A DNA stretch of 64,000 nucleotides from Candidatus Woesearchaeota archaeon (GTDB taxonomy: Archaea > Nanobdellota > Nanobdellia > Woesearchaeales > JACPIF01), in contig JACPIF010000011.1 in the NCBI GenBank assembly GCA_016188215.1, positions 172,159-236,158 of the forward strand, read 5' to 3'. Position 1 is the first letter of the stretch. Each line of letters starts with the position of its first letter. The notes under the pieces were generated by a model. It was not told the origin of the DNA, ran no database searches, and saw only the letters and a list, made by a program, of their open reading frames with translations. Positions 7,781 to 26,119 of the stretch are shown piece after piece. Position numbers and translations under genes: made by a program.

Positions 7781-9538
7781 ATGGAAACACGCTCAGTAAT
7801 CTGCACGGTGATGGGTCATGTGGACCATGGCAAGTCCAGTATCCTGGACAGGATTAGAGGCACGGCTATTGTAGAGTCTGAGCCAGGAAAAATAACGCAG
7901 GCAATCGGCGCTTCAATTGTTACCCTTGATGTAATCAGGAAGATAGCCGGCAGCCTGCTGGAAACATTAAAGATAGAATTGACCATTCCCGGCTTATTAT
8001 TTATAGACACTCCCGGGCATGCAGCCTTTACCAACCTCAGGAAAAGGGGAGGCAACCTGGCAGATATCGCCATCTTAGTGATAGACATCCAGGAAGGCAT
8101 GATGCCGCAGACCCTGGAATCTTTAGAGATATTAAAGACCTACAAGACTCCGTTTATTATCGCATTGAACAAGATTGACCTGCTGCAGGGCTGGCAGGAA
8201 ACGCAGGGCACCATGATTCAGAAGATCATGGCGCAATCCCCCAACATGCAGGCACTCCTTGACCAGAAGCTGTACGAGCTGGTCGGCAAGCTCTCAGAGA
8301 ATGGGTTTAATGCAGAGCGGTTTGACAGGGTAGAGGATTTCACCAAGCAGGTTGCCATAGTTCCTGTTTCTGCGAAAACAGGCGAAGGCATTGCAGAATT
8401 ACTGGTCATGTTGGCAGGATTAGCCCAGAAATACCTTGAGCAGAGCCTGAAGGTAAACCTCCAGGGCCCTGCAAAAGGGACTGTCCTGGAAGTAAAGGAA
8501 GAGACTGGTTTAGGGACTACATTGGATGTCATCCTGTTTGACGGCAGCTTGACAATTAACGATACAATTGTGATTGGCACCACAAAAGAGCCGCTCGTTA
8601 CAAAAGTGAAAGCTCTCCTGGAACCCATGCCTTTGGCAGAGATGCGCGATAAGAAGGCAAAATACTCAAGGGTGCAGGAAGTAAAAGCAGCGACCGGCGT
8701 CAAGATATCTGCTCCTGATCTGAAAGAAGTGGTTGCAGGCATGCCGTTGAGGGGCGTAAAGAATGGCGATCTTGAAAAAGTAAAGCAGGATATCATGCAG
8801 GAGGTCCAGGAGGTCCTTATAGAGACAGATGAGAACGGAATTATCATAAAGGCAGATTCCCTGGGCAGTTTAGAGGCACTCATCAAGCTGTTAAGAGAGC
8901 GCAGCATCTCTATCAGGAGTGCATCTGTCGGCACTATCAGCAGGAAAGATATCGTGGATGCAGAGACTAATTATGAAAAAGATCCCCTGACTGCAGTCAT
9001 CCTTGGCTTTAACATACTGCCGCCTGATTCAGCTTCTCCAAAAGTGAGGATCATAACGAGTAATATCATCTACCGCCTTGTTGAGGAATACGAGGCCTGG
9101 AAGCAGGCAGAGGCCAGGAAACAGCAGGAGAATATCCTGGACACCATGAACCGCCCCTTCAAGCTGGAAATCCTGAAGGGATGCATCTTCCGGCAGAGCA
9201 ATCCTGCCATTGTCGGCGTTGACGTGCTTGCAGGTGTTGTAAGGACCAACATGCCTGTCATGGATAAGAACGGAAATGAGCTGGCCAGGATCAAGGAAAT
9301 GCAGTTGAACCAGGAAAACGTGCCCCGGGCTGAGAAGGGGCAGCAGGTTGCTGTCTCACTGCCCAATGTCACGGCAGGCAGGCAGATTGCAGAAGGCGAT
9401 ATCCTCTTTTCATCAGTCCCTGAAGAGCATTTCAGGAAGATGAAGGAGCTGAAGCAGAACATCACTCCCGAAGAGATAGAGATACTGAAAGAGATAGCCG
9501 AGATAATGAGAAGGCAGAATCCTTTGTGGGGCGTGTGA
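7781..9538 (+). CDS. infB: Translation initiation factor aIF5B (IF-2)
   Basis: GHVDHGKS, ITQAIGA, DTPGHAAF and NKID GTPase motifs. Confidence 0.97.
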   Translation: METRSVICTVMGHVDHGKSSILDRIRGTAIVESEPGKITQAIGASIVTLDVIRKIAGSLLETLKIELTIPGLLFIDTPGHAAFTNLRKRGGNLADIAILVIDIQEGMMPQTLESLEILKTYKTPFIIALNKIDLLQGWQETQGTMIQKIMAQSPNMQALLDQKLYELVGKLSENGFNAERFDRVEDFTKQVAIVPVSAKTGEGIAELLVMLAGLAQKYLEQSLKVNLQGPAKGTVLEVKEETGLGTTLDVILFDGSLTINDTIVIGTTKEPLVTKVKALLEPMPLAEMRDKKAKYSRVQEVKAATGVKISAPDLKEVVAGMPLRGVKNGDLEKVKQDIMQEVQEVLIETDENGIIIKADSLGSLEALIKLLRERSISIRSASVGTISRKDIVDAETNYEKDPLTAVILGFNILPPDSASPKVRIITSNIIYRLVEEYEAWKQAEARKQQENILDTMNRPFKLEILKGCIFRQSNPAIVGVDVLAGVVRTNMPVMDKNGNELARIKEMQLNQENVPRAEKGQQVAVSLPNVTAGRQIAEGDILFSSVPEEHFRKMKELKQNITPEEIEILKEIAEIMRRQNPLWGV

Positions 9539-9576
9539 TTCAGCAATTTATTCTGCAAGAAAACTTTTTACGCCAA

Positions 9577-9900
9577 TTAGGCTTTAACCTTCACTTTCTT
9601 ATCAAAATATTGCTTAGTCTCCTGTTGCAACAATTCCTTATAGGCATCTATCAGTTCTGCAACAGCTGAGTTTTCCTCATTCAGTTTGAATAGTTTAGCC
9701 TTTCCAATCTCCCGCGTTGGTACAACTATCTTTAAGGCTATAAACTCATTCCACAATCTGCTTAATGTAGCCCAGCCAACATTGCTGTTCCGCGCGATAT
9801 CTGACATGGAATAATCCAGGCCCCGATACTTTATTAAATAGTTCAGGATTCGTATTTTTGGCGTGTTTCCAAGCACTTTCATAAAGAAAGAATGTTCCAT
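9577..9900 (-). CDS. Winged-HTH DNA-binding protein
   Basis: DYSMSDIARNSNVGWATL helix-turn-helix with TREIGKAKLFKLN wing. Confidence 0.8.
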   Translation of the reverse strand: MEHSFFMKVLGNTPKIRILNYLIKYRGLDYSMSDIARNSNVGWATLSRLWNEFIALKIVVPTREIGKAKLFKLNEENSAVAELIDAYKELLQQETKQYFDKKVKVKA

Positions 9901-9959
9901 AGATGTATGGTAACAAAAGTCATATATAACCTTTTGTAATAAACATGACTTAAGAAAGA

Positions 9960-10066
9960 GCATGACTCAGCCGAGATAAATCTCGGCTGCTGTGGGTTGT
10001 CCGCGAACCGCAGCTTACTGGCAAATATTCGCGGACCAAATCGCGCCACGCGAAGCCGCCTCATGC
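9960..10066. repeat. Modular REP-like palindromic element A
   Basis: Hairpins CAGCCGAGA-TAAA-TCTCGGCTG (9968-9989) and GTCCGCGAA..TTCGCGGAC (9999-10036); modules recur near 53.1 kb and 57.5 kb. Confidence 0.75.
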
Positions 10067-15698: not shown

Positions 15699-16340
15699 TT
15701 AAAACTCCTTATTCTCCCCTTCCAGAATCTCAGTAAACTCAATTCCTTCTTTTGGCAGCACCTGGTTCGGCACCCATCTGGTAGAAGCCCTTTTATCCTC
15801 TTTCAGCATCCCATCATGCACCGGAAAGCAGACCTTAGGCTTTACCTTTTTAGCGTATTCAATCGCTTCAGATATCTTCATCCACGGCCCTGCAACCGGT
15901 AATGCAAGTATCTCAACTTTCTTGTCAGGAACAGTAAATGCATCTCCAGGATAAAATAATTTGCCAGCTATCAGATACCCTGTATTCTCAATAATTGGTA
16001 TTGAGTCATGTATTACCGCATGCCTTTCACCAATGCCTTCAATAGTAACCCCTTTTACAGTAACGCTCTTCCCATGAGCAAGCAACTCAAACGCAATACC
16101 ATGCTCCACAAGCTTTTTTCCAACTCCATGATTCGTAAAAATCTTGGCGCCAGGATTATTTTCCAAAATCTGCTTGAAATTTTCAAGGTCAATATGATCA
16201 GGATGCTCATGCGTTATCAGTATGGCGTCTGCATCTTTTATCTTTTCTTGGCCAGTAGAAAAATTCCCCGGATCAAACAGTATCCTGGTTCCATGATCCT
16301 CAACCAGCATGCAGGAATGGCCTATTTTGGTTATGTTCAT
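15699..16340 (-). CDS. Metallo-beta-lactamase-fold hydrolase
   Basis: GHSC, THEHPDH, YPGD and PVHD motifs; ATG at 16340 just downstream of tRNA-Gln. Confidence 0.9.
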   Translation of the reverse strand: MNITKIGHSCMLVEDHGTRILFDPGNFSTGQEKIKDADAILITHEHPDHIDLENFKQILENNPGAKIFTNHGVGKKLVEHGIAFELLAHGKSVTVKGVTIEGIGERHAVIHDSIPIIENTGYLIAGKLFYPGDAFTVPDKKVEILALPVAGPWMKISEAIEYAKKVKPKVCFPVHDGMLKEDKRASTRWVPNQVLPKEGIEFTEILEGENKEF

Positions 16341-16349
16341 GGTAAAAAG

Positions 16350-16449
16350 TAGCCCCGGGCAGATTCGAACTGCCGTCAGATGGTCCAAAGCCACCTATGC
16401 TTGACCGCTACAAACCGCAGAATCGCAATGCGATTTCTTCTACGGGGCT
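16350..16449 (-). tRNA. tRNA-Gln(TTG) with 27-nt intron at position 10/11 (16413-16439)
   Basis: Removing the intron gives a 73-nt cloverleaf AGCCCCG..CT-TTG-GA..TTCGAAT..CGGGGCT-A; BHB motif at both junctions. Confidence 0.9.
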
Positions 16450-16573
16450 ATAAAGCATAAATCTGCCGGAACTGGGATTTAAGTGCTGGATGTGCATATT
16501 TAAACTTAATGATTACCATCTAATCCTGAGACCCTTAACTTAAGGTATTTCCTTTAATACGCACACCACATTT

Positions 16574-16761
16574 CGGCGGCTGGACGGTCATGCTCACCAC
16601 TGTTCGCATGCCCTACGAATCACCCCGTAAGGGACGTCCCCCGATTCGTCCAGCGCCGTCGTGGCGTGCGGCGAGGCGAGGGTTGGCTCCTACGGAGTGC
16701 CGAGTAGGGCAAAATCGTGGCGGAGCAGAGATTTTGCCCGTCGCACCGCCAGAGACGACGC
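16574..16761. repeat. GC-rich multi-stem non-coding element with GTAG-foot REP-like units
   Basis: Several nested stems; GTAGGGCAAAATC..GATTTTGCCC; reverse-oriented GTAGGGC and GTAGGAGCC. Confidence 0.6.
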
Positions 16762-26047: not shown

Positions 26048-26119
26048 CGCCCCTGCGAAGAATCGAACTCCGATCTCAAGGTCCGCAACCTTGCGTACTG
26101 TCCATTATACGACAGGGGC
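26048..26119 (-). tRNA. tRNA-Arg(GCG), intronless
   Basis: GCCCCTG..CAAGG-TTGCGGA-CCTTG..GTTCGATT..CAGGGGC-G cloverleaf. Confidence 0.93.

Follow-up and report, generated by a model that had tools for sequence, protein, structure and literature searches.

A predicted 27-nt relaxed HBh' intron at position 10/11 of the tRNA-Gln(UUG) gene in a Woesearchaeales archaeon

The only tRNA-Gln(UUG) gene that was detectable in the genome of this tiny groundwater archaeon (Candidatus Woesearchaeota) appears to be split within its D-stem: an intron of 27 nt, which has the relaxed HBh' form, separates G10 from U11. Its sequence identifies the insert as a real, conserved, non-canonical archaeal tRNA intron of the endonuclease type (BHB family). 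Taking the gene, its relatives and the enzyme genes of the genome together, we consider it highly probable that this tRNA carries an EndA-type HBh' intron at 10/11, which would be cut by EndA and sealed by RtcB. The type of intron is known, and the gene provides a new example of it without a new mechanism.

The interrupted tRNA-Gln(UUG) gene

The window (the whole 64,000-nt stretch of contig JACPIF010000011.1 that was analysed) was read on the minus strand, and the parts of the gene were assigned by reading, by comparison with relatives, and by folding (Table 1). The insert, 16439..16413, was excised in silico and the product was submitted to ARAGORN, which returned tRNA-Gln(ttg) as a cloverleaf whose acceptor stem has 7 bp, the D-stem 4 bp, and the anticodon and T stems 5 bp each. 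The restored D-stem consisted of the pairs G10-U25, U11-A24, G12-C23, and U13-G22. Cutting after the second nucleotide of each bulge (AG/A and UU/U) took out exactly 27 nt and left the G10-U11 junction found in intronless relatives. The first-pass annotation had called a tRNA-Gln gene with a 27-nt intron at 10/11 whose removal repairs the D-stem, and reading, ARAGORN, the intronless relatives, and the homologues all upheld this call. CCA is not encoded by the gene.

Table 1. Features of the tRNA-Gln(UUG) locus (positions in the window) and the EndA gene (positions on its contig and extracted locus)
Feature	Position	Strand	Basis
Precursor tRNA-Gln(UUG) gene, 100 nt (73-nt mature tRNA plus 27-nt intron)	16350..16449	minus	sequence reading; ARAGORN after excision; intronless relatives
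Exon 1, tRNA nt 1-10 (acceptor 5' strand, U8, A9, G10)	16440..16449	minus	reading; relatives; ARAGORN
Predicted HBh'-type intron, 27 nt, between nt 10 and 11	16413..16439	minus	reading; relatives; blind scan; homologue alignment
Exon 2, tRNA nt 11-73	16350..16412	minus	BLAST matches of relatives begin at query base 38 (U11); exon 1 runs straight into 16412 in contigs from other organisms
Central helix H, 5' strand (C5 C6 G7 U8)	16442..16445	minus	reading; homologues
Central helix H, 3' strand (GCGG, intron nt 22-25)	16415..16418	minus	reading; homologues
5' splice-site bulge A9 G10 / A; predicted cut after G10	16439..16441	minus	reading; homologues
3' splice-site "bulge" U U / U11, no closing outer helix; predicted cut before U11	16412..16414	minus	reading; homologues
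Inner helix h' and hairpin (3 bp beside the bulge, one bulged A, 5 bp, AUU loop)	16419..16438	minus	reading; folding; homologues
AUU loop of the inner hairpin, 3 nt	16427..16429	minus	reading
Anticodon UUG	16386..16388	minus	reading; ARAGORN
Discriminator A73	16350	minus	reading
Run of five T, two bases past the tRNA 3' end; likely archaeal terminator	16344..16348	minus	reading only
TTAAAT, candidate TATA box, 28-33 nt upstream of tRNA nt 1	16477..16482	minus	reading only
EndA gene	C11:158254-158814 (L030:1225-1785)		domain matches

All elements named by the first-pass annotation (the bulges AG/A and TT/T, the helix CCGT/GCGG, and the inner hairpin) were present on the minus strand. The central helix is composed of four exon/intron pairs, C5-G, C6-G, G7-C, and U8-G; its reported use of acceptor-stem nucleotides 5-7 was borne out, and U8 takes part as well. 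The inner hairpin reads AGA(A)AUCGC / GCGAU-UCU. It closes on a 3-nt AUU loop and has one bulged A in the stem, and the 1-nt loop drawn for it earlier is impossible. For the outer exon helix h, C4-G12 alone can pair at this locus, while C3/U13 and G2/A14 cannot. The strict hBHBh' motif has at least 2 bp in each of h and h'; here h' was found and h was missing. The motif was therefore assigned from its sequence to the relaxed HBh' form instead of a strict BHB, and with h missing the 3' site does not amount to a true bulge.

In relatives, TTTAAATA was read at a distance upstream of tRNA-Gln comparable to that of the candidate TATA box TTAAAT. A listed open reading frame on the minus strand (15699-16394) overlaps the tRNA's 3' half; it belongs to a metallo-beta-lactamase-fold gene, the true start of which is probably the ATG at 16340, ten bases past the tRNA. 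The sole tRNA in the window that Rfam reported at its gathering score was an uninterrupted tRNA-Arg(GCG) at 26048-26119 on the minus strand (58.3 bits).

The tRNA-Gln(UUG) gene itself was not reported by Rfam at that score. Infernal gave it 26.9 bits, compared to a cut-off of 29, and aligned it only from model position 10. ARAGORN called no tRNA on the isolated 160-nt unspliced piece; on the window it did report tRNA-Gln(ttg), at 16349..16424, but with a start that falls within the insert and hence with a wrong 5' half.

The whole 1.11-Mb assembly was then scanned blindly in the manner of SPLITS. Every 4-bp helix with 3-nt bulges and at least one outer helix was collected and spliced in silico, and an ARAGORN tRNA spanning the junction was required. 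The scan yielded 371,222 BHB-like candidates and, from these, 28 ARAGORN calls across a junction. It recovered the tRNA-Gln(UUG) locus with the cut after nucleotide 10 and a length of 27. An alternative solution at the same locus, in which the cut follows nucleotide 11, 25 nt are removed, and a 76-nt product results, was poorer and was ruled out by the junction of the relatives. Moreover, the first 40 nt of the precursor folded better than all of 200 shuffled sequences (200/200; z -3.36). The motif is more than a chance arrangement.

Since the source is a metagenome-assembled genome, we considered that the insert might be an artefact of assembly or binning. The conserved 3' part of the tRNA is in addition a repeat at which Logan contigs break. 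Nevertheless, DNA contigs from runs of two studies spanned 16382-16600 or 16351-16600 with 0 differences, and an insert at the same site was present in 43 other genes from independent assemblies. An artefact is, in our judgement, hardly credible.

The 10/11 insert in relatives

The 100-nt gene was compared by BLAST with 61 genomes (the source genome, G000, and 60 relatives), and matches were obtained in 21 of them. Many of the matches in relatives began exactly at the first base past the insert. Two genomes of the same genus, G002 and G001, encode an uninterrupted tRNA-Gln(UUG) with 94% and 89% identity over exon 2, respectively, and their junction, GTAG/TGTAG, is exactly the one predicted after splicing. 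Metagenome contigs of other organisms likewise run straight from the base corresponding to 16412 into exon-1 sequence. G003, from another family, has a 21-nt insert at 10/11 together with an anticodon-loop intron, and most other relatives whose flanks were read have no insert at 10/11. The genes that flank tRNA-Gln(UUG) differ between the source genome and its intronless congeners, and tblastn of the three flanking open reading frames against the G001, G002, and G003 loci gave no match.

A pattern built from the exons only, with ten exon-1 and twelve exon-2 bases fixed and 12-42 free positions between them, was run against 401 genomes of the order. There were 15 matches in 14 of the 401 genomes (12 of 281 high-quality genomes), and the reversed pattern gave 0 matches on the same 401 genomes as a control. 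Every one of the 15 inserts ended in R-Y-G-G plus 2 nt, which makes the same central helix possible; one of the 15 came from an unpublished genome (G315), and the count is 14/14 without it. All four central-helix pairs were formed in 15/15 of these genes, which had been found without forcing the helix. A scan of a species-representative genome collection gave 41 loci with a pattern that did require the central helix. Pooling and de-duplication left 44 distinct tRNA-Gln genes with a 10/11 insert of 14-39 nt.

For nearly all of the 44 genes, the title of the record is Candidatus Woesearchaeota, Nanoarchaeota, or Nanoarchaeia. A few records with the 10/11 insert are labelled uncultured Methanosarcinales, one Micrarchaeota, one Thaumarchaeota, and one "bacterium" (L038, L052, L054, L059, L061, L065, L067-L071, L073). 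Such titles probably stem from problems in the labelling of metagenome bins, but a range of the intron wider than Woesearchaeales is also conceivable. The first-pass annotation had called position 10/11 unusual. This holds in so far as the position is absent from the list in the text of a review (see below), whereas within the lineage it recurs in 44 genes.

The inserts of the 44 genes were aligned on the motif. The first three h' pairs were formed in 97.7% of cells, compared to 20-59% when the 3' partner was slid by 1-3 bases. At each of these three positions A-U and G-C alternate, the first position being A-U in 27 genes, G-C in 13, and G-U in 4. In the central helix, G7-C is exchanged for A7-U in 4 of the 44 genes. 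The 5' bulge is AG/A in 42/44 and AG/G in 2/44, and the 3' bulge is AA/U in 28 of 44. The outer helix is missing from every gene, with 3:13 and 2:14 mismatched in 44/44 and 4:12 able to pair in 26/44, and the motif is thus conserved in its relaxed HBh' form.

Removal of the 10/11 insert alone gave an ARAGORN call from the true 5' end in 21/44 genes, compared to 0/44 for the unspliced sequences. When an anticodon-loop intron was allowed in the same test, the numbers were 35/44 versus 9/44. The remaining genes hold further inserts in the D-loop, variable region, or T-loop, or are cut by contig ends. Among relatives, tRNA-Gln genes with the 10/11 insert often hold one to three more, the sites being the D-loop, 37/38, the variable region, and the T-loop (L045, L055, L074, L036, L034, and others).

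The start of h' differed by isoacceptor, being mostly AGA/UCU in UUG genes (12 genes) and mostly GAG/CUC in CUG genes (7 genes), and near-identical 18-nt introns occurred in several species. Because of these two features, vertical descent within each isoacceptor seems to fit the sequences better than repeated fresh insertion.

tRNA genes, splicing enzymes and folding of the precursor

Another intact tRNA-Gln(UUG) elsewhere in the genome, in combination with only an unspliced transcript or none, had been named by the first-pass annotation as an observation that would speak against the intron. The 91%-complete assembly was searched for a second such gene by ARAGORN with or without introns, by the Rfam tRNA model to E=10, by BLAST, by pattern search, and by a scan for T-arm hairpins, and none was found. 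The other glutamine tRNA, tRNA-Gln(CUG), lies on contig C1 at 143358-143494 on the minus strand (locus L083) and carries three inserts, at 10/11 (20 nt), 37/38 (23 nt), and 59/60 (29 nt); it was not detected by ARAGORN or Rfam. A D-stem insert at 10/11 is therefore present in both glutamine tRNA genes of the genome.

ARAGORN called 9 tRNAs in the genome by default and 20 with anticodon-loop introns allowed (-i), and Rfam placed 16 above its cut-off. Only 21 intact T-arm hairpins were found. Nine further tRNA-like T-arms surfaced only once a 59/60 insert had been removed, most of these inserts having hardly any inner helix or none (hBH type), and excision of a 53/54 insert revealed one more; the tRNA-like status of the nine was judged by reading their 3' acceptor strands. 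By sequence, the source genome is generally rich in tRNA introns of the endonuclease type. Automatic annotation of multiple introns in all tRNAs of the genome was also attempted. It was partial and gave spurious calls, such as a "Gln(ttg)" at a tRNA-Gly locus on contig C7, and was kept out of the counts beyond the T-arm scans.

A tRNA set that looks so visibly incomplete to standard tools, with only 16 genes over the Rfam cut-off, would also suit a dead or unspliced copy, with CAA codons decoded by a tRNA from the ~9% of the genome that is missing from the assembly, or in some other way. This is countered by the fruitless search for a second gene and by the presence of the insert in both glutamine tRNA genes. 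All four stems of the tRNA are intact once the insert is removed, and, unlike in decay, the architecture is kept with compensatory changes in 44 genes. We regard a dead or unspliced copy as very unlikely, and the preferred reading remains a functional tRNA gene with a predicted intron.

The genes for the two splicing enzymes were next located. EndA is a single open reading frame on contig C11 that encodes 187-200 aa depending on the start and matches PF01974 and PF02778; it has both the N-terminal and the catalytic domain of the enzyme. It adjoins a divergently transcribed gene for a tRNase Z-like metallo-beta-lactamase. Neither a second subunit nor a paralogue of EndA was found in the genome at E<=10. 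One significant homologue each, with 61-77% identity, was found in G002 (100% complete), G331 (99%), G003, G161, and G229. Typing of the endonuclease, which the first-pass annotation had proposed as a check, hence gave one α-type EndA and no second subunit. This gene content is that of the homotetrameric α4 enzyme, and judging by its sequence the protein is probably a homotetramer.

Among solved structures, EndA was closest to 3iey_A, the Nanoarchaeum equitans catalytic subunit (E 3.6e-37), and to 1a79, the homotetramer of M. jannaschii (E 6e-30). The structure paper of the M. jannaschii enzyme reportedly describes a catalytic Tyr/His/Lys and an acidic L10-type loop for tetramer contacts. Y, H, and K of our EndA align with those of 1a79. 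Its DDEGD stretch is matched by DADGD in M. jannaschii, at a place where two residues are missing from the catalytic subunit of N. equitans. The spacing of the catalytic Tyr and His is 9 residues both in our EndA and in that of M. jannaschii, whereas manual counting gave 15 for N. equitans and 14 for ARMAN-2. At the N-terminus, the segment that is the site of the crenarchaeal CSL and the ARMAN ASL is only one residue longer than in M. jannaschii. None of the known relaxed-specificity loops (L1/CSL, L2/ASL, L3/NEQ-ARMAN) was found in EndA N-terminally between the YG and LSL motifs or between Tyr and His. Because the Tyr-His spacing is that of M. jannaschii and there is no CSL- or ASL-like N-terminal insertion, EndA appears to be without the loops tied to relaxed cleavage. 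The C-terminal Trp is present. The six aligned Woesearchaeales EndAs agree in the spacing, the N-terminal length, the acidic loop, and the Trp, and at position 50 they share a conserved Lys/Arg in place of the Phe of M. jannaschii. In the text of published accounts, the loops are linked to cleavage of relaxed motifs and α4 enzymes are described as strict (PMC5829648, PMC3488258), and the C-terminal Trp is given as typical of broad-specificity (αβ)2 and ε2 EndAs (PMC3488258).

RtcB is encoded on C11 at 8649-10018 (L031:1313-2685) in three collinear pieces in different frames. The gene contains two 31-nt inserts of BHB-like geometry (4-bp helix, bulges AT/T and TG/A, 9-10 bp hairpins), which sit within the GHWG/YGFPIGG and GIGFD/INCGMR motifs. 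The gene is uninterrupted in G002, G003, and G331. In G001, of the same genus, there are inserts at or near both sites, the first ~6 nt away, with unrelated sequence. A literature search for mRNA introns of this kind turned up the cbf5 mRNA intron alone among the matches listed.

The geometry of the sequence, the exact junction, the conservation with covariation, and the presence of the enzyme genes are established.

The folding of the precursor was then computed. Since the central helix uses nucleotides 5-7 of the acceptor stem as well as U8, it is in competition with the acceptor pairs 5:68-7:66. For the full-length precursor, the model assigned probabilities of 0.95-1.0 to the acceptor pairs that compete and of 0.00-0.05 to the pairs 5:35 and 6:34 of the helix, and the fold constrained to the BHB was 6.7 kcal/mol above the optimum. 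The first-pass statement that splicing requires an alternative fold agrees with these values. The minimum-free-energy fold of the full-length precursor did not give the BHB, and was not used as support. On the first 40 nt, by comparison, the central helix had a probability of at least 0.98, and on nascent fragments of all 44 genes at least 0.84. Once 38 nt have been transcribed, all that the helix needs is present, ~55 nt ahead of the acceptor 3' strand with which it competes. For this reason, the helix most likely forms on the nascent transcript.

The predicted register of the bulge on this nascent piece was less favorable. In the 40-nt RNA, a slipped register, with A9-G10-A instead of the following AGA paired to UCU, was favored over the BHB register by 3.5 kcal/mol, and the slipped register had a probability of 0.88-0.99, compared to 0.01 for the h' register. 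Across the 44 nascent fragments, the gap of the BHB register was 0 in 7 and <=2 kcal/mol in 28, with a median of 1.3. We therefore considered whether the insert is removed differently, through the slipped register, through the D-hairpin stacked on H as a stand-in for the outer helix, or with the aid of a helper or a second EndA subunit. The slipped register is the predicted optimum in the 40-nt RNA, the lone EndA has none of the known relaxed-specificity loops, and a 91%-complete assembly could miss a divergent subunit. Against this, the product has to be G10 joined to U11, and a shift of either cut by one nucleotide fails to give it. The 3-4-3 geometry is kept in 44 genes despite differences in stem sequence, and the BHB register is optimal or within 2 kcal/mol of the optimum in the 28 homologues mentioned. 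Moreover, a single EndA homologue was also all that was found in the more complete genomes G002 and G331. Removal by one of these other means is in our view improbable.

The preferred reading is removal through the bulged HBh' register. Nucleotides 5-8 of the precursor would pair with GCGG near the 3' end of the intron to form the 4-bp central helix, and A9-G10-A would bulge out where this helix meets h', the hairpin that belongs to the intron itself. On the 3' side, the cut site UU/U11 would follow the central helix without a closing exon helix. Helix formation, and possibly cutting, would take place on a nascent or not-yet-folded precursor, and binding of EndA would select the bulged register. 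EndA would then cleave each bulge behind its second nucleotide, and RtcB would ligate G10 and U11, which would restore the D-stem and free nucleotides 5-7 for the acceptor stem. For cleavage and ligation, we infer these steps by analogy with the family.

Known systems and meaning of the finding

There is ample precedent in the texts available for non-canonical introns of the endonuclease type, for several introns in one gene, and for HBh'/hBH motifs (PMC4090602, PMC4033280, PMC3239211, PMC8450103). A close likeness is the pre-tRNA-Glu(UUC) of Methanopyrus kandleri with an intron at 20b/21. As described in the text of PMC5829648, it is also a relaxed HBh' intron in the D-arm, its gene can hold a canonical intron too, the enzyme is also without a specificity loop, and the mature tRNA was seen by RNA-seq. 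The M. kandleri intron is located in the D-loop, however, whereas ours lies between the first two pairs of the D-stem, and its central helix borrows no acceptor-stem nucleotides, unlike that of the 10/11 intron (PMC5829648). Furthermore, the M. kandleri enzyme is (αβ)2 and the intron a single case, while here there is a single EndA gene and the site is common to dozens of species (PMC5829648).

In Thermoproteales, according to the text of a review, introns of the endonuclease type occur at many positions, up to three per gene and often as HBh'/hBH, and the extreme case at 3/4 must likewise involve acceptor-stem nucleotides (PMC4090602). Thermoproteales are Crenarchaeota with an (αβ)2 EndA that has the CSL loop, unlike the enzyme here (PMC4090602). 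The positions listed in the text of that review are 20/21, 22/23, 25/26, 29/30, 30/31, 45/46, 53/54, 56/57, 59/60, 3/4, and "etc.", and 10/11 is absent from them (PMC4090602).

ARMAN-2 (Ca. Micrarchaeum) is also a DPANN archaeon, with a genome of ~1 Mb and 56% of its tRNA genes disrupted, and its relaxed hBH introns at 59/60 occupy a position that is frequent in the source genome as well; its EndA is a three-unit ε2 enzyme with the ASL loop, whereas the one here is an α-type protein of ~187 aa without ASL (as given in the texts of PMC3239211 and PMC3488258). In its main text, Kaneta et al. 2018 report for DPANN genomes, including one Woesearchaeota MAG, an α4-type EndA, more disrupted tRNAs, and incomplete predicted tRNA sets (PMC5829648), and the source genome fits this general situation. 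They credit a loop named "L3". Judged from the Tyr-His spacing, none of the six Woesearchaeales EndAs has it, though L3 may be defined differently in that paper (PMC5829648). Its supplementary tables may list the 10/11 intron already. D-arm inserts of ~20 nt in Asgard archaea were overlooked by tRNAscan-SE, many are without a canonical BHB, and their splicing is likewise predicted (bioRxiv 10.64898/2026.10.13.758758, in the text available). Asgard archaea are a different lineage with a two-subunit EndA in most genomes, and the specific 10/11 tRNA-Gln site was not found in that text (bioRxiv 10.64898/2026.10.13.758758). A literature search for a 10/11 intron or for Woesearchaeal tRNA-Gln found no paper, the primary catalogues (Marck & Grosjean 2003; Sugahara 2007, 2008; Fujishima 2010) being outside its scope.

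The analysis adds a well-supported position, 10/11, within the D-stem, to the catalogue of archaeal tRNA disruptions, with at least 44 genes. It also shows why the tRNA sets of these small DPANN genomes look incomplete, as in the 9 tRNAs called by default ARAGORN in a 91%-complete genome. Of specialist interest is the combination of a splice helix borrowed from the acceptor stem with a lone, loop-less EndA. It provides a concrete pair of substrate and enzyme for asking whether single-subunit EndAs without known specificity loops can cut relaxed motifs, a question that matters for the proposal that endonuclease architecture and intron diversity have evolved together.

More tentatively, the 10/11 intron may be an old feature of Woesearchaeales tRNA-Gln that tracks the isoacceptor, with an acceptor-borrowed helix that forms only before the 3' end of the tRNA is made, and may be cut, along with the 59/60 hBH introns, by the lone loop-less α-type EndA. 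This broader reading is possible and we do not favor it strongly. If it were true, the conserved Lys/Arg at position 50 and the C-terminal Trp would be candidate determinants of specificity, and Woesearchaeales would offer a further, undescribed route to broad EndA specificity together with a co-transcriptional timing of tRNA splicing.
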